In this document: piece by piece, positions 1-56,071 of the stretch | How the letters are laid out: each line of letters opens with the position of its first letter | Numbering within the stretch: position 1 is the stretch's first letter | Source: Bdellovibrionia bacterium | GTDB taxonomy: Bacteria; Bdellovibrionota; UBA1018; JBILEK01 | Direction: 5' to 3' | NCBI GenBank assembly: GCA_044352155.1 | Contig: JBILEK010000003.1 | Coordinates: 834 to 64,833, forward strand | DNA: 64,000 nt | Translations under genes and position numbers: made by a program | Notes under the pieces: generated by a model | Databases searched by the model: none | What the model was told of the DNA's origin: nothing | The model's input: only the letters and a program-made list of their open reading frames with translations

Positions 1-2645
1 TGAGCAAAGCTCAGTGTCCATCTCGCAAGACGATGAAGAGAGGCGATTGCATACGGTCCACCAGCCTCAGCGGCATCGGTGTAGAACTTTGAGAGACGCT
101 GAAATCCGTTGATCCGATCAGTAATCCCGCGCTGAAGCGTAACTTCCGGAAGCGCAAGAGGCGCAAACTTAAAGCGCTCCTCTTCGAAATCCGCCAGACG
201 ATAGCGCACATAACCGATGTAAGGCGACTGAGTTTTTGCTGCTAAACTCGAGACCTGTGCGTAAACTTTGCGCGCATTTGGAAAATCTTTTGACTTCAAA
301 AACAAGTCTCCTAAGCGCGCTCCACACTCGGCACCCACACTCCCGCCTGCTTTCAGACAATTGCGATACCACTGCGAGGCCGAAGACTCGCTCCCTGTCT
401 TTTCTTGAAGCTTTCCGATCAGCAGCTGGATGGAAGGTACTCTTGCTTGAGCCTGAGCTCCGAAGCGCTTGATCCACTCGGCCCAAAGCTTTTGTGCGTA
501 CTCTGCATCCCCGAGCGCCTCAGAGATACGCGCTGCAGTTTCCAGTGACTCAGCATCCGCAGTGTCCTGAGAGATGCGTTCAAAAACGACTACCGCTCCC
601 TTAAACTCACCCTGAATCAGCTGCTGAGTGGCCATGATGCGCAACTGCTCGGGTAGTTTTTTGCTTCGAGGAAATCGCACAGACCACCGCTGAAGTACTC
701 GCTCGGCGCTCTCACGATCAGAGGCGAGTCCGTAGTTTAAAATCGCACTCTGGTAGGACTTTTCTGAAAGCTCAGCGTCTTTACTCCCCTCGGCGAACCG
801 CTCATAGGCTCGCGCCGCCGCTTTATAGTCTTTCTTGCGCTCGTAGATCGAGATCAGGCTTACGGATAAACGCGTTTCTTGAGCCGCAATGAGCTGCGCT
901 AACTTGCCACCTTGCTTGCGATCTTCAGTGACCAGTGCTGCGTTTTCTTTAAGACTCTTACAGGTCTCTGCAAGATCTTCGGCACTTGAAGCAAACTCAC
1001 TTTCAGACGCTATTTTAGGATCAGGCAAACGATCACTTAAGATCTGCACCCAAAGTCGCGCAGCGGTAAGCCCTTGTGGAGTGCTTGGGTAGCGATTCAC
1101 TAAAGATTTTGCGCGTTTAAGCGCCTCTGCTTGAGTCTCCAGGTATCCTGCAAGAAGCTGCGCAGATCGCACGGCAGCCTCTCGGGCTTCAAGTGAGCCC
1201 TCGATACGCTCCTGAAGCTGATCTGAAGCCTTCACAAACTCGAGCTCCGTCTCTGTGGGTTGAGACTTACCGGTGTGCACTGAACCCGCAGAGGATTGTG
1301 CTTTTAAAGTTTCTGAGAGGGAACCCACCCAGTTGGCTGCTGCATCTTTCTTGAAGCGATCATCCCCTTTTTCAACAACCTCTTTGTATAGAAGCGAGGC
1401 CTCTTTTTTCTTACCGAGATCACGCTTAACTTCTGCAAGGTACATCTGGATCTCGGCTTTTTCTCCGCGTGAGTCGTTTCGAGCCAGAAGCTCAAGGTAG
1501 AGCTTATAGAAGCGCTCAGCCAACAAGAGCTGATCTCGCGAGGGCTTCTTACGATAACTCGCATGCGCTTGGGTCGCTGTACGGCGGAGCATCGACTTTA
1601 AGTTGTTAAAAGCAACCTCCGTATCACCGGAGAGACTCGTCGGGATTCGCGCGCGCTCAAGGAGTGCCGGAACGGCCGCGTAGTTTTTCTTATTGATTTC
1701 AAGCTCAATGAGCTTTGCAATCACCCGAAACGCAGCCTCATCCTCTGGATAGGTTTTTAAGATCGTTTCATAAACCTTGATTGCCTGATCTCTTTTAAGC
1801 GTGCGCTCATACTCTCGCCCGAGGCGCTCTAAGGTTACGGGAAAGTAGTCGCGATTTCCGGCAACGCTTTGAAAGTAAGCCAGCGCGTCCTCGACACGTC
1901 CTGCCTCCGTCATGAAAATCGCCATGTCTCGCAAAGCTTCTTCGCGCAAGGAGACTTGACTCTCCCCCTCCTCGGTTGCAGCGGAAATCGCTTTTTTCAT
2001 CGTCTCAACTGCACGGCTAAACTGCTTCGTGCGGTAGTATGTCCAAGCGAGTTTATGCAAGAGCGTTGGAGTTGTTCTTGGCTTAGAGCGCAGTGCAAGC
2101 TCGTAATAAGCTTGAGCCTGACGGTACTCTTGATCGCCATAAAACGAGTCGCCAAGCTCGCGATAGGCTTCGGCGACAAAGGGACTCTCTGGATATTGCT
2201 CGGTGAGCTTTTTCAAGTAGAGAAGGCTCTTTTTACGATCGCCAAGCTCTCCATAGTTAAAGCCCAGAAAATAATAAACGCGATCCATTTTGTTAAACGG
2301 TATTCGTAAATTCAAAATCTCACGGCACGCTTGGATTCCCTGGCTTAAGTACGGACGCGAGTTCGAGCGCTCGATCGTTTTAACTCGCATGCCTTGTTTT
2401 AAGCGCTTCTCATGCACTCGCCCTTCCAGCAAAAATTGCGCACGATACTCCTCAAGATAGAGCTCAGCTAAGCGAAAGTAGAGATCCGCGCGACGATTGG
2501 ACTGGATGCGCCGACCGAGGGCTAGGCGAATTTGTATCACTTCTTGCTCACGGAGCTGACGGATCTTGCTCTCCTTGTCTGACTCAACGCTTCGAAGCTC
2601 GCTTAGGCTATAGCGATCCGTCGCGGGGGCAGCATACGAGAGCAT
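1..2645 (-). CDS. Large TPR-repeat exported protein; 3-prime end runs off the window start (partial). ATG start at 2645; an alternative TTG at 2711 would add a classic signal peptide (HKRFLIPLLVLSAAMLSYAAPA)
   Basis: Manual translation of the minus strand from 2645 to position 1 gives an uninterrupted about 880-aa reading frame with repeated TPR-like helical motifs (for example AEAYRELGDSFYGDQEYRQAQAYYELAL). It is absent from the ORF track only because no stop codon lies inside the window. Confidence 0.6.
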   Translation of the reverse strand, partial: MLSYAAPATDRYSLSELRSVESDKESKIRQLREQEVIQIRLALGRRIQSNRRADLYFRLAELYLEEYRAQFLLEGRVHEKRLKQGMRVKTIERSNSRPYLSQGIQACREILNLRIPFNKMDRVYYFLGFNYGELGDRKKSLLYLKKLTEQYPESPFVAEAYRELGDSFYGDQEYRQAQAYYELALRSKPRTTPTLLHKLAWTYYRTKQFSRAVETMKKAISAATEEGESQVSLREEALRDMAIFMTEAGRVEDALAYFQSVAGNRDYFPVTLERLGREYERTLKRDQAIKVYETILKTYPEDEAAFRVIAKLIELEINKKNYAAVPALLERARIPTSLSGDTEVAFNNLKSMLRRTATQAHASYRKKPSRDQLLLAERFYKLYLELLARNDSRGEKAEIQMYLAEVKRDLGKKKEASLLYKEVVEKGDDRFKKDAAANWVGSLSETLKAQSSAGSVHTGKSQPTETELEFVKASDQLQERIEGSLEAREAAVRSAQLLAGYLETQAEALKRAKSLVNRYPSTPQGLTAARLWVQILSDRLPDPKIASESEFASSAEDLAETCKSLKENAALVTEDRKQGGKLAQLIAAQETRLSVSLISIYERKKDYKAAARAYERFAEGSKDAELSEKSYQSAILNYGLASDRESAERVLQRWSVRFPRSKKLPEQLRIMATQQLIQGEFKGAVVVFERISQDTADAESLETAARISEALGDAEYAQKLWAEWIKRFGAQAQARVPSIQLLIGKLQEKTGSESSASQWYRNCLKAGGSVGAECGARLGDLFLKSKDFPNARKVYAQVSSLAAKTQSPYIGYVRYRLADFEEERFKFAPLALPEVTLQRGITDRINGFQRLSKFYTDAAEAGGPYAIASLHRLARWTLSFA

Positions 2646-36800: not shown

Positions 36801-39800
36801 ATGACGTCAAAAACAAGCGCGCTACGATCCCTGATCCTGCTGATGGCTTTAAGTGTTTGCGGGTATTCGTCGGCTCTTGCGTCTACGCGTCCTACGATCG
36901 CGGGCCTAAAAACCGTGCTCGTGATTCGCGACAAAAAACAAACACTCGAACGCTTTGCGCAAAACCTTCCTGCGGGCGTCAAAATCGTCTCCTCATTTGA
37001 CGATCTCGTCCTTCTCGAAGGGATGACCTCAGAGTCAACGAAAGACCTCAAAAAGCGTCTTCACGCTCGCTTTATCAAGCAAGGTCAAAACGTCTCCTCT
37101 CCGATCACTGCTCTGAGTGCGCGTCATCGGAGTAATCAAGCTCTCGACGTCCCTCCGCGCCAGGAGACTTCTCACCGATCGCTTGCAGCACTCACGGATC
37201 GATGTCCTGATGGGCGCTCGCGCCTTTGGGCTCAAGAGTCCTTAGATGCACCGTTGTTTGAGACGGCTCTCTCACTGATTGATCCAAAAATTCAGGCGCA
37301 AAGCGCGCGCGTTGCCGTACTGGATTCAGGGTTTGACGCAACTCAAGCTGACGCGTTTAGTGCGATCGGTGGAGTACAGCCTCGTGATGGTGTGCTTGCA
37401 GGAGATCGCAGACCCGTAGGGAGCGTCTCCTGGCCCACGGACTCTAGCAAAGATCCAAGCACTCCGATCACAGGACGCCCCGGATTTGATCCGGGCGGTC
37501 ACGGCACCATGGTCGTAAGCACTATTGCCGCAAACGACGGGCTTGGAATCGCAAAAAACATCGAACTCTCTTTGTATCGAATTACTCCCGAGGGAGATGG
37601 AGGGTCTACTTCTTCAGTCTACATCGACATTGCACTTTGGAGAGCTTGTCAGGAGATGCGCGACCCGGCGGGCCTTACGCTCATTAACCTCTCGTGGGGC
37701 GGTCGCTTAGATGAGCAACAAGTAGAGGATGCGGAAGATCTTAAACTGGATCAAGAAATGGAGCGACGCTTAGCTGAGGCAGGATGCCTTGTTTTTAAGG
37801 CAGCAGGCAATGACAACTTTCGAAACGCTCGACGTGACGAAAAACTTGATGACGCCACTCTACGGGTCGCTGCCACGGATCTCACCCGAAAGCTAAGCTC
37901 TTTCTCAACGCGAGGTGAAGTCTCAGCGCCCGGCAGTGACGTGTGGGTTGTACAAAGTGCGCAGACTAAAGTCTCTGATCGCGCCTCAAGCAAGTGTGAG
38001 GCGTTCACACATCCCTCGCGACCACGTCGATTCATCAATGGGACAAGTTTTGCGGCCCCCTTCATGACTGCGGTTGCCTCTCAGGTCGTGCGCGCGCTTA
38101 AAGCGGGAGATCAGTTTGCAACTCTCTCAACACGCGACCGAATCAAGCTTGTGAATCGAATTTTAAAAGCCTCGACTCTCTCAGGCTCTGTGAATCTAGT
38201 GCGCGCAGTTCAGATCGCTTCTGAATGGAACAAAAATCCGATCCCCGGATCCCCAGATGAGCTTGAAGCTCTCTTAAGCGCAAATCCAAATCCGAGTTGT
38301 AAAGAAGAAAAACCCGTGCGCTGCTCACGCCTGACTGACCCGATCCTTGTTAAGTCGTGCGTACTTCAAAGTCGGCTTCGCGTTGCAACTTGCCCATCGG
38401 TCGATCCCTCTGTGCTTGAGGATCTGGCGATTACTGCTTTCAAGGAGGCAGAGATTGAGCTTGGGCTAAAAGCCGCAGATCTCTTTGCAGAGCACTCAAA
38501 CAACAACAAAGCAAAGCGCTCGATTTTAAAAAGTGGGATCGATCAGTTCGTCGCACGCACTGGAAAAAACGACTATAAAATCGCGCCCGTCCTCACTCCG
38601 AATCTCTTGCGCGCTCTGATTATTCCTTATCTTGAAGCTTGCACGCTCGAGCGCAACTGCGATGGAGAGTTAAGCTTGGTCCTCGTTCGAGCTGCGCTAC
38701 TCTCTCGCTCTATCGCATTTTCACTCTCTGAAGGAGTTGATACCGAGACTGGAGAGGATCGAGGGAGTCGGGATACCGAAAAAGCAATGTCACGACTTTT
38801 CGAGCTCTCCCTTAAAACGATTTCCTTGGATGGAGCTCTTCAAGTCCTTAAAATGCTCCAACGCGCTTCGTTTGGAGACACCCCAAGCCCTGAAGAAATC
38901 CTGAAAGAAAACTCCGAGGATCAAAACTACTTCAGCCGCACTCAGATCCCAAGACTCGCTCCCAGTGTCGTTGTGAGGTTACTGGATGCTTTCATCCGAG
39001 TGACCAAACCTGGGTCCGCAATCAGCGTCGTCTCCCAACGCATGGAAGCGCGCGTTCTCGAAGAAATGGCCAAAAGAAACGACTACTTTCTTGGAAAAAC
39101 CGAAAAGTTTGTCCTCTATGTCGAGCAAATGCCAGAGCGCGGAAGCTTTGATGCTACTCTGGAGCGTAACCGCACAAGAATCGATCTCGCGCTTGAGAGC
39201 GGCCAGTGGCAAGCGCTCGCTCCGATCGAGATGCATTACGCTCTCCGAAATCCCCAAGGATATCCAAAGTGGAAAGAGGCTTACTTAAAAATGCTGATCG
39301 AGGCCTCAGAGCTTGCTCTTCAGGGGAGAGGCTGGGGCGCACAAAACGATAACGAAATCGTGATGCTCGCACTTGAAGAGTGTTTTGCTCCTCGCTCAAA
39401 GCTCTCTCCAAGTGATCAAGCCACTTTACTTGAGTCGCTGAGGAGTGCTCTGTTAAAGGCCAGAAACTCTGATGTGCTCTTAGAGCTTGAGTATGCGGAG
39501 CGGCTCAATCTGAGCATCGGACAAACTGCAACAGAGGGGCTGTTTAGCTCTTACAAAGAAAGAGCCGAAGCCGAAAAAAATGGCCTCACTTTCAAGTCTC
39601 ATCCCCTTTTGAGTCCATCCTTGATGGCTCATGTGCGTTTGCGACTAGCCGCTGGAGTCCTAAGCTCTCGTGGACGGCACCGAAAATTCAATCGTATCCG
39701 CTTTCAGGATTTGATCGAACGCCTTGCGATCGATCACGCAAAAGCGACTCCGATCCAAAGCTCTTCGGACGCAAGCGTGCTCCCACTCACAGCCTTTGAG

Positions 39801-40208
39801 GGATCCCCTCCGTCGCGGCTTCCGGATCCCAAGCGTCCGAGTGGTACAGCGCTCGAGCTCACGCACGAGTCAAGAGCCGAGATCTTGGACTCGCTTGCTG
39901 AGCGACTGATTGTTGAGAGCTTTGAGCAGACACCTAAGGGGCTGCGACTAGGGGTGGACTCGGATCGGCGCTATCTTTTTTATCAAACGGGGCGCTGGTT
40001 TAGAGACGAAGAGGATCGGACTCGATTTTACTTAGGTTTTAATCCGCAAGGAAAGTGGCGCAAAGCTGCACAAAAAATCATCGACACACTTCGAGGCAGT
40101 TATGGTGATTATTCAACGAGTGATGCTGTGTACGCACTTCGCTCGATGATCGAGCGCGTTGAAAAAGTGCACCAATCAAAAACTGGCTGCGTTGATTGTG
40201 GTATCTGA
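36801..40208 (+). CDS. Secreted subtilisin-like serine protease (peptidase S8) with long C-terminal extension (1135 aa); last 9 codons plus stop lie inside the IS left inverted repeat
   Basis: Signal peptide; catalytic triad motifs VAVLDSGFD, GHGTMVVSTIAA, GTSFAAPFMTAVAS. Confidence 0.8.
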   Translation: MTSKTSALRSLILLMALSVCGYSSALASTRPTIAGLKTVLVIRDKKQTLERFAQNLPAGVKIVSSFDDLVLLEGMTSESTKDLKKRLHARFIKQGQNVSSPITALSARHRSNQALDVPPRQETSHRSLAALTDRCPDGRSRLWAQESLDAPLFETALSLIDPKIQAQSARVAVLDSGFDATQADAFSAIGGVQPRDGVLAGDRRPVGSVSWPTDSSKDPSTPITGRPGFDPGGHGTMVVSTIAANDGLGIAKNIELSLYRITPEGDGGSTSSVYIDIALWRACQEMRDPAGLTLINLSWGGRLDEQQVEDAEDLKLDQEMERRLAEAGCLVFKAAGNDNFRNARRDEKLDDATLRVAATDLTRKLSSFSTRGEVSAPGSDVWVVQSAQTKVSDRASSKCEAFTHPSRPRRFINGTSFAAPFMTAVASQVVRALKAGDQFATLSTRDRIKLVNRILKASTLSGSVNLVRAVQIASEWNKNPIPGSPDELEALLSANPNPSCKEEKPVRCSRLTDPILVKSCVLQSRLRVATCPSVDPSVLEDLAITAFKEAEIELGLKAADLFAEHSNNNKAKRSILKSGIDQFVARTGKNDYKIAPVLTPNLLRALIIPYLEACTLERNCDGELSLVLVRAALLSRSIAFSLSEGVDTETGEDRGSRDTEKAMSRLFELSLKTISLDGALQVLKMLQRASFGDTPSPEEILKENSEDQNYFSRTQIPRLAPSVVVRLLDAFIRVTKPGSAISVVSQRMEARVLEEMAKRNDYFLGKTEKFVLYVEQMPERGSFDATLERNRTRIDLALESGQWQALAPIEMHYALRNPQGYPKWKEAYLKMLIEASELALQGRGWGAQNDNEIVMLALEECFAPRSKLSPSDQATLLESLRSALLKARNSDVLLELEYAERLNLSIGQTATEGLFSSYKERAEAEKNGLTFKSHPLLSPSLMAHVRLRLAAGVLSSRGRHRKFNRIRFQDLIERLAIDHAKATPIQSSSDASVLPLTAFEGSPPSRLPDPKRPSGTALELTHESRAEILDSLAERLIVESFEQTPKGLRLGVDSDRRYLFYQTGRWFRDEEDRTRFYLGFNPQGKWRKAAQKIIDTLRGSYGDYSTSDAVYALRSMIERVEKVHQSKTGCVDCGI
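40178..40202 (+). repeat. IS left terminal inverted repeat (IRL)
   Basis: AAAAACTGGCTGCGTTGATTGTGGT; overlaps the last codons of the S8 protease (QSKTGCVDCGI-stop). Confidence 0.65.
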
Positions 40209-40237
40209 GGCCTTAAGTTTGCAACGCATGCGGAGGA

Positions 40238-41161
40238 GTGGGCGCGCATTTTACCTTACCGAAACTTTCTCAGTCCCAGTCGGCGAGAGTCTCCTTTAAG
40301 GGCATAGTGTGTCGATGTCCAGGTGAGCGTCCAGAGAGCGTGCATGCGTTTGGCAGTTTTCTCAGACGCTCTGATCGCACTCGCGTTTTGCGCTATCGGT
40401 GCACTCGATGTAAAAAGTCATTTTCAGAGGCCACGCTCACTCTTGAGTGGCGGCAAAAAAAGCGGCATATCAACGCACCGCTTGAGCATCTGATTTGCTC
40501 TGGGGTGACTTTTCGGCGCTCCGCTCGGATTTTAGGGGTGCATCGCTCAACAACGCTCAGGCGATTAAAGTATCTGGCGCGCAGGGCTGAGCTCTGGCAG
40601 CGGGAGTTTCTTAGCGGTTTTCAAGCGGGCAGCGAAATACAGTTTGATGAAATGGAGTCTTTAGAGCAAACAAAGCTTAAGCCGCTCTCGATTCCACTTT
40701 TAGTAGATAAACAGACGCGAAAGATCCTTGCCTTTGATGTCGCATCGATGCCGGCTAAGGGAGTGCTGGCTTCAATGTCGCGGAAAAAATACGGCCCTCG
40801 CAAAGACGAGCGGAGCGCTGCGATCGAAAAACTGCTCGAGGATCTGAGTCCGCGCCTTACGAGCTGCCAGATCATCCGCTCGGATGATTGCCCCCGATAC
40901 CCAAGGCCCATGAGACGTCATCTGCCGAGACTTAAGCATCTGCGCTGCGCTGGGGGGCGGAGTTGCGTTTTGGGGCTGGGGGAGCTTAAGCGCAAAGTCT
41001 ATGATCCGCTTTTCTCGCTTAATCATACGGCTGCCATGCTGCGCGCCAATCTCAGTCGACTCCAGCGAAGGACTTGGAGTGTTTCGAAAAAGGCCGAGAA
41101 CTTAAAGCATCACATCCAAGTCTACATCCGCTACCATAATGAAGTGCTCACGGCGCTCTAG
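40238..41161 (+). CDS. IS1-family transposase, single fused ORF (zinc finger + HTH + DDE domain), GTG start
   Basis: N-terminal Cys4 zinc finger CRCPGERPE...RYRCTRCKKSF aligns to IS1 InsA. HTH segment is SARILGVHRSTTLRRLKYL. The DDE region and C-terminal LNHTAAMLRANLSRLQRRTWSVSKKAENLKHHIQVYIRYHN align to IS1 InsB ([41 protein letters not shown]). Confidence 0.65.
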   Translation: MGAHFTLPKLSQSQSARVSFKGIVCRCPGERPESVHAFGSFLRRSDRTRVLRYRCTRCKKSFSEATLTLEWRQKKRHINAPLEHLICSGVTFRRSARILGVHRSTTLRRLKYLARRAELWQREFLSGFQAGSEIQFDEMESLEQTKLKPLSIPLLVDKQTRKILAFDVASMPAKGVLASMSRKKYGPRKDERSAAIEKLLEDLSPRLTSCQIIRSDDCPRYPRPMRRHLPRLKHLRCAGGRSCVLGLGELKRKVYDPLFSLNHTAAMLRANLSRLQRRTWSVSKKAENLKHHIQVYIRYHNEVLTAL

Positions 41162-41314
41162 CGCCGATCTTCTTTGTGCCACACACTCCCTCAAGAATCT
41201 CAGTGATTGAGTGTGCAGGACGTGATGGTTTCGTGCGATGGCGCTTCAGGGACGCTCTCTTTAGAGCTTATTGATGAAACTCAGCCCGAATTCGAGCGCG
41301 CATGCGTAATTCAA

Positions 41315-41339
41315 ATCAAAAATGACCACAATCAACGCA
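41315..41339 (-). repeat. IS right terminal inverted repeat (IRR)
   Basis: Reverse complement identical to IRL; encodes the last five codons plus TGA stop (KNWLR-stop) of the minus-strand ccsA. Confidence 0.65.
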
Positions 41340-43035
41340 GCCAGTTTTTACCCTTCACAATTGCAGTACACCCGAGCACATAGGCGAGCTTGATCCCTAT
41401 TCCGATCCACACCCCACCAGATGCGCCACTCGTGAATCCGTACGAGTGCAACCCAACTCCTAAAATAAAGTTCACGCCGTACCACGCCATCATTACCGAC
41501 AAAAAGCTCACCACCGTCCAGACCGCAAACCCAAACCGTCCCACCCAGCCCGCATAGCGTCCATGGAGCACAGCCAGGTAACACAATAGAGCAATGAGAG
41601 CCCAAACCTCTTTGGGATCCCAACCCCAGAATCGACCCCACGAGTAGTCCGCCCACACTCCCCCTAAAATCGTCCCTGCCGCAAGCAGCACGACTCCGTA
41701 CTGCATGGATCGATAAGCAAGTTGATTCATTTGATCGATCGACTCACGAAACGATCTGCCGGTGATCTTTTCTCGCGCAAATTGAAAAAGCGAAACATCC
41801 GCAAGCCCCATCGAGAGCGCAAAAGCGGCGTAGCTGATCGTGATCGTCAGCACATGAACGGTGAGCCAGAGGTTACTTCGCAAAACCGGGACAAGAGGAT
41901 GGATCCCAGGATCCATGACGGCAGGCGCTGCATCAGCAGCGATTAGGCCAAAAGCTGCTAGAAAACATGAGGTCGCAAGCAAAATCAATTGTCGCTGATA
42001 GTAGTAAAGGATGAGCCCAAAAAAGAGCACTCCAAATGCAACCCAAACAATCGACTCATACATATTGCTCACCGGCGGACGACCCGCGATGTAGCACCGA
42101 AACGCAAACCCCAGCGTGTGCACAGCAAACCCCAGCCCCAGAAACACCCAGGCACTTGCGCGCAGGAGCTTTGAGTTTGCTCCCGCCCCGAGAGCCGCCC
42201 ACAAGATGGCCGAGAGCAAATAGAGGATCCACGCCCAAAGAAACGGATGCCACTCATTGTACAGGCGCTCGGCGCGCATCAAAGTGTCTAAGCGTGGGGC
42301 TCCAAGATTTGCGATACTCTGCTCTACTGCTTCACGCGCTTTCTCACTCGCAGACTCAAAACCCGTCTGATCTCCAGAGTAGTAAGCACGGATCATCTCC
42401 GCATAAAGTGCAGGCACACTCGATCTATCCGTCGAGCTTAGCCCCTCCATCCTCGCTTGCGCGAGCGACTTCCAAGGCTCAGGAGAGCGCTCAGGGATCA
42501 CGCCCCAGGCCTCTCCGCTGACTAGAGCTCGAAAGAGACTGATCCCTTGGATCACTCGCTCGAACTCTTTTTCACGCACAGGTTGAAGCGAGGTGCCAGC
42601 GGTCGCATTTTCTTTGCTGATCGTATTCTTTTTTACTCCGGCACTTGCGTACTGCGCGACTGCCGGATTGCTCAGAAGTTCTTCAGGAGAGAATCTCGAT
42701 CTCGACTCATCTAAAAGCAGCTGGCGCTTGACTTCTTGGTGGTTGATTTTAATGAACTCGCGCTTCTGCCATACTTCGGGCGCTGAAATGAGTGAAAACA
42801 TCAAATCAACCGGGTCCCAACCCTGATACGTCCGCGATGAAGTGAGCGAAAGAACAACTTCACGCGCATAGGTATCAAATGGCTTAAAGCGGCCGCCCGC
42901 CTGCACAGGGATCAAACCTGCTGGACCAAAGTTCCACGTCTTGCGTCGTTCTCCGGCTTCTGGACGAGACTTTTCTTGCGCATTTGCAAAAGGCACTGAC
43001 AAAACGAGCGCAATCAAGAGACCGAGAGTTTTCAT
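41332..43035 (-). CDS. ccsA: Cytochrome c-type biogenesis protein CcsA/ResC (system II heme lyase component)
   Basis: WGWDPKEVWAL tryptophan-rich WWD motif, conserved His residues, polytopic; follows ccsB. Confidence 0.85.
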   Translation of the reverse strand: MKTLGLLIALVLSVPFANAQEKSRPEAGERRKTWNFGPAGLIPVQAGGRFKPFDTYAREVVLSLTSSRTYQGWDPVDLMFSLISAPEVWQKREFIKINHQEVKRQLLLDESRSRFSPEELLSNPAVAQYASAGVKKNTISKENATAGTSLQPVREKEFERVIQGISLFRALVSGEAWGVIPERSPEPWKSLAQARMEGLSSTDRSSVPALYAEMIRAYYSGDQTGFESASEKAREAVEQSIANLGAPRLDTLMRAERLYNEWHPFLWAWILYLLSAILWAALGAGANSKLLRASAWVFLGLGFAVHTLGFAFRCYIAGRPPVSNMYESIVWVAFGVLFFGLILYYYQRQLILLATSCFLAAFGLIAADAAPAVMDPGIHPLVPVLRSNLWLTVHVLTITISYAAFALSMGLADVSLFQFAREKITGRSFRESIDQMNQLAYRSMQYGVVLLAAGTILGGVWADYSWGRFWGWDPKEVWALIALLCYLAVLHGRYAGWVGRFGFAVWTVVSFLSVMMAWYGVNFILGVGLHSYGFTSGASGGVWIGIGIKLAYVLGCTAIVKGKNWLR

Positions 43036-52139: not shown

Positions 52140-52295
52140 AGCATTGAACAACGCGACTTTGGAGCGCTTCACGTCAATCCTTTGTCGGACCTTAACAGAG
52201 GGTTAAATATTTCCGGGTAAGTTTTTTCCCTCCCCTCTAGTCGTTCTCTCAAAACCTCTTCATCCTGAAAGAACAGAAAAGGAGCACGGAAGCTC

Positions 52296-55473: not shown

Positions 55474-55612
55474 TTCCCCCTATGAACGAGTATCGGCTTC
55501 AGGGATGCCCCTCTGTAGACTGCAAGATTTTCCCGACACGCGGAGCCACACGCTCGGAACTCATTTAAAAAGCCTGCGGCTTAGTGCTCGGATTTAAGGA
55601 CGAGTCGCACTC

Positions 55613-55631
55613 TCAACGCAGCCAGTTTTTA
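55613..55631 (-). repeat. Solo partial copy (outer 18-19 nt) of the IS terminal inverted repeat, same orientation as IRR; encodes the KNWLR-stop tail of the NUDIX gene
   Basis: TCAACGCAGCCAGTTTTTA identical to 41322-41340; verified base by base. Confidence 0.7.
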
Positions 55632-56071
55632 AAAGGCGCGCCACGAGCTAATCCTTCAGTCAAAAGACGCAACGCCTGCAACTGCGAGTCAAACGGAATG
55701 CGCACGCGCGCCTCCTCAAGCGAGACCCACGCATGCGCTACGTGCTCGCGAGAGTCGAGGATCGGCTCTAAACAACTCGGCAACTCCCATGAATAGCAGC
55801 GCTCCTCAACAGGGCCGCGCGCTCCACGAAAAAAAAACTCAAACCCAAGCGCTTTAGGAGTGCCCAAATCGCCGTTAAAACCCGTCTCCTCGCGCCCCTC
55901 ACGATAAGCCGCTTGGTCCTGATCCTCTCCTGGCTCAACGCCACCGGTCACAGGCTGCCAGATCGATTTGCGCTCCGGGGTTGTCTGAAGCAGTAGCACC
56001 CGATGCTCGCCCGATCTCTCGTCTCGAGCATGGATCCAGACCTGGACTTTTTTAAGCGATCCTTGTTTCAT
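55613..56071 (-). CDS. NUDIX hydrolase
   Basis: Nudix box GGVEPGEDQDQAAYREGREETG. Confidence 0.8.
   Translation of the reverse strand: MKQGSLKKVQVWIHARDERSGEHRVLLLQTTPERKSIWQPVTGGVEPGEDQDQAAYREGREETGFNGDLGTPKALGFEFFFRGARGPVEERCYSWELPSCLEPILDSREHVAHAWVSLEEARVRIPFDSQLQALRLLTEGLARGAPFKNWLR

Follow-up and report, generated by a model that had tools for sequence, protein, structure and literature searches.

Gene ends at the resident insertion sequence and at 55.6 kb

The window (the whole 64-kb stretch of DNA analysed here) carries a resident insertion sequence (IS) and, apart from it, a solo copy of the IS right end flanked by genes for a NUDIX hydrolase and a C25 peptidase (Table 1). The solo copy is a 19-mer, TCAACGCAGCCAGTTTTTA, of which the window holds two exact copies, at 55613-55631 (+) and 41332-41350 (+), sharing one orientation, and the IS left end gives a minus-strand match at 40177-40195 with one mismatch. 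The sequence-only reading had taken the 19-mer for the tip of the IS right end in the same orientation, and the exact match agrees with this; the position that it gave for the IS copy, 41322-41340, was 10 nt too low. The match at the solo site starts precisely at the IS terminus, and the two mismatches of the extended repeat are adjacent to each other. When the related IS of locus L045 was compared by tblastx, its matches were confined to 40.3-41.2 kb, that is, no IS body was found near 55.6 kb. Neither an intrinsic terminator nor a promoter was found at the site as an explanation of the 19-mer.

Table 1. Features discussed in the text (window positions, except for the two L004 repeats, which are numbered along that locus).
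Feature	Position	Strand	Remarks
S8 peptidase gene	36801..40208	+	convergent with ccsA; ends in the IS left end
Resident insertion sequence, 1172 bp	40178..41349	+	perfect 25-nt inverted repeats; single transposase ORF; sub-threshold NCBIfam IS1 match
Left inverted repeat, AAAAACTGGCTGCGTTGATTGTGGT	40178..40202	+	encodes the last 9 codons of the S8 peptidase, KTGCVDCGI
Transposase ORF, 307 aa from the first GTG	40238..41161	+	
Right inverted repeat	41325..41349	+	source of the final five codons and the stop of ccsA (minus strand)
ccsA/ResC-type cytochrome c assembly gene, 567 aa	41332..43035	-	domain model ends by residue 533
Candidate relic extent, 66-nt imperfect palindrome (tentative)	55566..55631	-	TAAAAACTGGCTGCG... 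pairs with ...CCGCAGGCTTTTTA
Extended solo inverted repeat	55608..55631	+	22/24 nt identical to the IS right repeat, 41327-41350
Solo IS-end copy	55613..55631	+	exact 19-mer, identical to 41332-41350; last 5 codons and TGA of the NUDIX gene (minus strand)
NUDIX hydrolase gene, 152 aa	55613..56071	-	Pfam NUDIX domain at residues 21-124
L004 repeat, TAAAGCTGGCCTACGAGAGTGTGC	718-744	+	PWM 17.0 bits
L004 repeat, GCAAACTGGCCCACTTGTGTGTGC	850-876	-	PWM 28.6 bits

The similarity is hardly accidental. It had been put at about 1 in 100, which is right for any repeated 19-mer in 64 kb but not for a match to one specific IS tip, for which our own arithmetic gives an expected count of about 128,000/4^18, or ~2e-6. 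Shuffled sequences searched with up to three mismatches to the 19-mer held 0.02 matches on average, and 0 of 100 reached three. On the other side, a weight matrix (PWM) of the family inverted repeats (see below) scores the solo site (55604-55630) at 12.5 bits, not above the maxima of 8 to 18 bits in 30 shuffles of the 64-kb window, while the left and right repeats of the IS reach 21.1 and 20.9 bits. Given the exactness of the match to the resident tip, we regard chance or convergent similarity as negligible. A scan of 185,579 representative genomes, the source genome not among them, for the 18-mer returned 38 scattered single matches in unrelated phyla and no pair, which is consistent with chance (about 17 expected by our own arithmetic). 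A 23-nt degenerate pattern gave 0 matches in a subset of JGI metagenome contigs, a search that missed the site-bearing JGI contig L002.

Three genes end in such IS-end DNA. On the minus strand, the NUDIX gene ends ...GCG CCT TTT AAA AAC TGG CTG CGT TGA (APFKNWLR, stop) and ccsA ends ...AAG GGT AAA AAC TGG CTG CGT TGA (KGKNWLR, stop); that the NUDIX gene terminates inside the 19-mer with the same KNWLR-TGA as ccsA had been claimed before and is evident from the tails as read from the sequence. The KNWLR tail is the same in all public contigs with this NUDIX gene (five blocks, two of them read). The S8 peptidase tail is ...VEKVHQS followed by KTGCVDCGI, with its stop codon at 40206-40208.

Orthologues in relatives without the IS have other tails. 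The NUDIX orthologues end ...GSPFQSLQGKK (locus L003, 81% identical) and ...GSPFSSLRPS (locus L004, 77%). The ccsA orthologue (P0136 in locus L046, 85% identical) ends ...AAIVKG-AFIKPKRA (IVKGAFIKPKRA, stop), against ...TAIVKG-KNWLR in the window, the native eight-residue tail AFIKPKRA being replaced by KNWLR; the S8 gene of L046 ends ...VDKAQLSR, its stop lying 4 nt after the convergent ccsA. The sequence-only reading had named beforehand the outcome that would count against an IS origin, namely IS-free relatives in which the NUDIX and ccsA genes natively end with the same sequence; the C-termini in such relatives proved to be different. Because the IS-free orthologues end differently, we read both KNWLR tails as element-encoded. 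The LR codons of the tail (CTG CG) coincide with the native-looking ...SSLR.. of L004, and therefore a small part of the identity in the NUDIX tail could be ancestral.

The IS-derived part of the NUDIX protein comprises its last five residues only. In the NUDIX and ccsA proteins the replacement affects the extreme C-terminus and leaves the NUDIX and CcsA domains untouched. The genes probably stayed functional, the scars being tolerated. For annotation, the point is that an S8 peptidase, ccsA and a NUDIX hydrolase within 16 kb have C-termini and stop codons from transposon-end DNA.

A large family of distantly IS1-like elements

The resident element belongs to a large, uncatalogued and distantly IS1-like family. 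A homology search returned 2,665 proteins at E ≤ 1e-3, including the public transposase entries P0011 and P0131-P0134, and at least 563 family loci were confirmed in one metagenome scan; a transposase search of 72,556 plasmids gave no match. The public gene callers use later starts and give transposases of 257-284 aa. The window transposase scores 44.5 bits against the NCBIfam IS1 transposase model NF033558 (cut-off 100), a model that 26 of 26 aligned relatives likewise match below threshold, with a best E-value of 1.2e-14. A Pfam search of the product gave nothing at E ≤ 0.01, the match to DDE_Tnp_IS1 being weak (E = 0.057). The N-terminus has a CxC...CxxC zinc ribbon, and every residue that is invariant in the 26-member family alignment is kept.

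Terminal repeats were located in about 60 family loci from unrelated metagenomes, in elements of 960 to 1290 bp. A tip (T)AAACTGGC/C with an inner TG is common to these ~60 members, whose transposases are 42-69% identical, and the tip motif is kept in 126 family ends. The window repeat fits this pattern. With its tip motif shared by some 60 family members, the 19-mer is transposon DNA and not captured host DNA. The closest other member, L045 (transposase 69% identical), has a clearly different repeat, AACTGGCCGGCTTAAGTGGG, which traces the solo copy to the lineage of the resident IS.

Target duplications of 9 nt were found in 7 of 62 family loci (L047, L053, L069, L071, L073, L095 and L099); six of the seven are perfect, and all lie at one offset, 2 nt outside AACTG. 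The loci that lack a duplication may have recombined, or may be chimeras from the assembly of a repeated element. The left flank of L062 is that of L063 and its right flank that of L066, around the same IS, as a result either of recombination between copies or of chimeric assembly. In L091, the right repeat is immediately adjoined by AAAAACTGCC (~1915-1935), which resembles an IR tip; the two make up the palindrome GGCAGTT-AAA-AACTGCC, for which a junction of abutted ends, a solo tip and chance are all conceivable.

The 9 nt abutting the family tips have an A+T content of 64-74%, against a background of 52%, with a sharp drop at nucleotide 10. Flanks of family IS (loci L047-L126 and L045, flanks of at least 300 nt) were also examined for inward open reading frames of at least 90 codons that end between -3 and +60 of the tip. 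Such frames were present in 35 of 72 flanks (49%), compared with 8.0% (77/957) at random positions (p ~1e-19), and on both sides in 17 of the 24 loci with both flanks. The family thus has an AT-rich 9-bp target and favours sites near gene 3' ends, as shown family-wide. AT-rich 9-mers would be concentrated around stop codons and terminators, where insertions at the 3' end would do the least harm. Because this gene-end bias goes together with an AT-rich 9-bp target of sharp boundaries, it may owe something to targeting in addition to selection. This family, with thousands of metagenome homologues, no Pfam model, scores below the NCBIfam IS1 cut-off and an unusually sharp link to gene 3' ends, would lend itself well to telling target choice apart from purifying selection in the distribution of IS.

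Empty sites in relatives and the origin of the solo repeat

It had been proposed that the 19-mers might bound an IS-mediated rearrangement of the 41.3-55.6 kb segment, and a synteny comparison had been suggested as a check. Such a rearrangement would be an inversion, translocation or deletion that moved or delimited the segment. When this comparison was run by tblastx, L003, which has rmlC, NUDIX and C25 peptidase genes in window order, was collinear with the window from 63995 to 51780, straight across 55.6 kb, and L046 was collinear from 50885 to 41350 and then past the IS from 40181 to 39480. Gene order is therefore kept across both sites and the whole interval, with no inversion or translocation junction at either repeat. 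The sole break in collinearity is a 2.1-kb indel between L003 and the window at ~52.15 kb, far from both repeats. The extra ~2.1 kb of L003 (13964-16103), absent from the window at ~52140-52175, holds three small genes (206, 243 and 189 aa) between a 295-aa gene and a carboxyltransferase gene.

Two observations at the resident IS would suit a rearrangement: the element has no target-site duplication, its flanks CACCAATCA and TACCCTTCA (40170-40178 and 41349-41357) matching at 6 of 9 positions, and ~34-37 nt of native DNA with both convergent stop codons are absent at the IS site relative to L046 (9681-9714 there), so that some local IS-associated deletion did occur. The missing 34-37 nt point either to a deletion next to the IS or to recombination after two insertions. 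The collinearity nevertheless refutes a large rearrangement of the 41.3-55.6 kb segment; the 41-56 kb block is native and not rearranged, and the solo site is best read as an ordinary transposon relic rather than a rearrangement breakpoint.

A decayed 9-bp duplication formed by CACCAATCA and TACCCTTCA (6/9, p ~0.01) was considered and rejected, as their L046 homologues are separate 9-mers more than 30 nt apart, one from ccsA (VKG) and the other from S8 (QLS). Three public contigs span the IS, and in each it lies at the same position, suggesting a low copy number. A Logan contig of the IS, L043, begins with AGATGTGTATAAGAGACAG (1-19) and ends with CTGTC (1001-1007), terminal sequences that we take for remnants of Nextera adapters and hence for an artefact of assembly without biological meaning.

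The 19-mer is absent from the NUDIX 3' end of L003, the nearest IS-free relative, which at about 80% identity stands at some distance from the window lineage. Neither this gene end nor the ccsA/S8 end of L046 has a PWM match of at least 8 bits to the family repeat. L004 differs, in that a pair of inverted family repeats, spanning 159 bp from end to end, starts at the NUDIX stop codon (Table 1); the top PWM score in the 30 window shuffles, for comparison, was 18.0 bits. No target duplication was found at this 159-bp miniature element. Its repeats differ from those of the window and its insertion point lies ~18 nt downstream, and therefore this gene end has received at least two insertions from the family.

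These relatives also bear on the idea that the NUDIX tail is natively IS-end-like and that the IS prefers such neighbours, without any insertion having taken place at 55.6 kb. In classic work on IS1 and IS30, insertions near end-like sequences have been reported. A family-type repeat within ~20 nt of the NUDIX stop in two lineages (the window and L004) hints at a preferred spot, and the tip-like sequence that abuts a right repeat in L091 could be read in the same way. However, the empty sites in L003 and L046 have no IR-like sequence, and the sequence-only reading's suggestion of a preferred target that mimics the IS end finds no support here. Moreover, the measured target preference is for AT-richness over exactly 9 nt rather than for likeness to a repeat, and 19/19 identity to the resident IS is unexpected for host DNA that evolves independently, family repeats being diverse. 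The copy in L004 is one arm of a two-armed miniature element rather than a bare host motif, and is evidence of transposition into the site rather than of a native look-alike. Target mimicry is accordingly judged unlikely.

Alternatively, ectopic gene conversion or templated repair might have transferred a short patch of the ccsA-IS junction to the NUDIX tail, with no transposition into that gene. This would fit an identity that extends one base (A, at 41350 and 55631) past the perfect 25-nt repeat, and a net site length similar to that of L003. One shared flanking base is nevertheless a 1 in 4 coincidence, and likelier in an AT-rich target; the next flanking bases differ (CCC vs AAA), and there is no homology to prime conversion, whereas transposition into the spot is directly documented in L004. 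We therefore hold short-patch copying to be quite unlikely.

Taken together, 55608-55631 probably stems from a second insertion, by the resident IS1-like element or a miniature form of it, of which deletion has removed the greater part. Among the explanations offered earlier was a relic of a second IS copy, and it accounts best for the data: the tip motif is IS-borne, it is absent at L003, and the native tails differ. Read inward in one frame, the element end is AAA AAC TGG CTG CGT TGA, with the TGA 16 nt from the tip, and a gene fused to it in that frame acquires KNWLR-stop; S8 is fused in another frame and has KTGCVDCGI-stop. We hypothesize that an IS copy or miniature derivative inserted into an AT-rich ...CCTTTTA at the NUDIX end. 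With a probability of 1 in 3, the insertion would have fallen in the frame that ccsA uses, and this would account for the shared tail of two unrelated proteins. Most of the element would then have been lost by host-mediated deletion (illegitimate recombination or slippage across paired repeats), leaving a single terminal repeat that is almost whole and, possibly, the degenerate palindrome of 66 nt.

This palindrome folds as DNA with -11.7 kcal/mol (z -2.25; 5 of 200 shuffles as good) and may, tentatively, be a degenerate miniature element. A 9/10 direct repeat on either side of it (55564-55573 / 55628-55637) is at chance level, as is the best candidate for a target-site duplication around the relic, CGCCTTTTA / GGCTTTTTA (7/9). 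A tentative model with a 64-nt insertion between TTTAAAA(A/G)GC repeats gives a NUDIX tail ...GAPFK-TGA, but with the 64 nt removed the fit to L003 is not clearly better (alignment score 151 against 141). The spacer between the NUDIX and C25 genes has no significant homology to the IS interior or to the L004 element except for one 24-nt block. This block (55496-55519, TCTACAGAGGGGCATCCCTGAAGC) resembles the right subterminal region of the IS (41242-41265, TCTAAAGAGAGCGTCCCTGAAGC; 0 of 500 shuffles as good), a likeness that is probably coincidental because the block is conserved in the IS-free L003 too.

It is possible, though we think it doubtful, that the family actively targets gene 3' ends, chiefly convergent junctions, via its AT-rich 9-bp target, that its ends act as portable stop codons, and that the NUDIX 3' end is a recurrent hot spot. 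The family ends do contain stop codons: the tip consensus TAAACTGG includes TAA, which most members have at the tip, and the window element has TGA 16 nt in. If this were true, insertions would rewrite C-termini instead of killing genes, and the NUDIX 3' end would have been hit independently in two species. A further reading, far less likely, is that the left IS repeat and the nearly intact solo repeat (22/24) could still work as a pair and mobilise a unit of 15.4 kb with ccsBA and the liu cluster.

Relation to known systems

Solo inverted repeats and IS remnants arise by deletion or 'nearly precise excision', classically in Tn10/IS10, through host slippage between short repeats. The site at 55.6 kb is alike in that an IS-terminal fragment stands alone, beginning at the tip, with no IS body and with no counterpart at the empty site of a relative. 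It differs in that neither a flanking duplication nor a short repeat marking the junction of the deletion was found, and in that the relic lies in coding sequence and supplies the stop codon.

The likeness of the family to IS1 lies in a size of ~1.0-1.2 kb, 25-nt terminal repeats, 9-bp target duplications (in seven family loci, the window copy having none) and a DDE-type transposase with an N-terminal zinc ribbon and HTH. AT-rich target choice is a property of IS1, and AT-rich targets are also found in this family. In contrast to IS1, the window element has a single ORF without frameshift instead of the insA/insB' arrangement, its scores against NF033558 and DDE_Tnp_IS1 are low (see above), and its ends are (T)AAACTGG and not of the GGTGATG type known for IS1. 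Adjacent deletions and several transposition pathways are known for IS1 (Turlan and Chandler, 1995, cited in bioRxiv 10.1101/2023.06.07.543989).

As regards MITEs, the 159-bp element at the NUDIX stop in L004, with its two family terminal repeats, is like them, and the 66-nt palindrome of the window, with one recognisable repeat and a degenerate partner, is a possible decayed miniature element; no duplication was found for either the L004 or the window element. Finally, an enrichment of IS between convergent genes has been described and ascribed to selection (Plague, 2010, Genome Biol Evol, PMC2942039). The resident IS resembles this pattern in lying between the convergent S8 peptidase and ccsA genes, but differs from it in that the insertions extend into the final codons of the genes, with stops provided by the IS ends.
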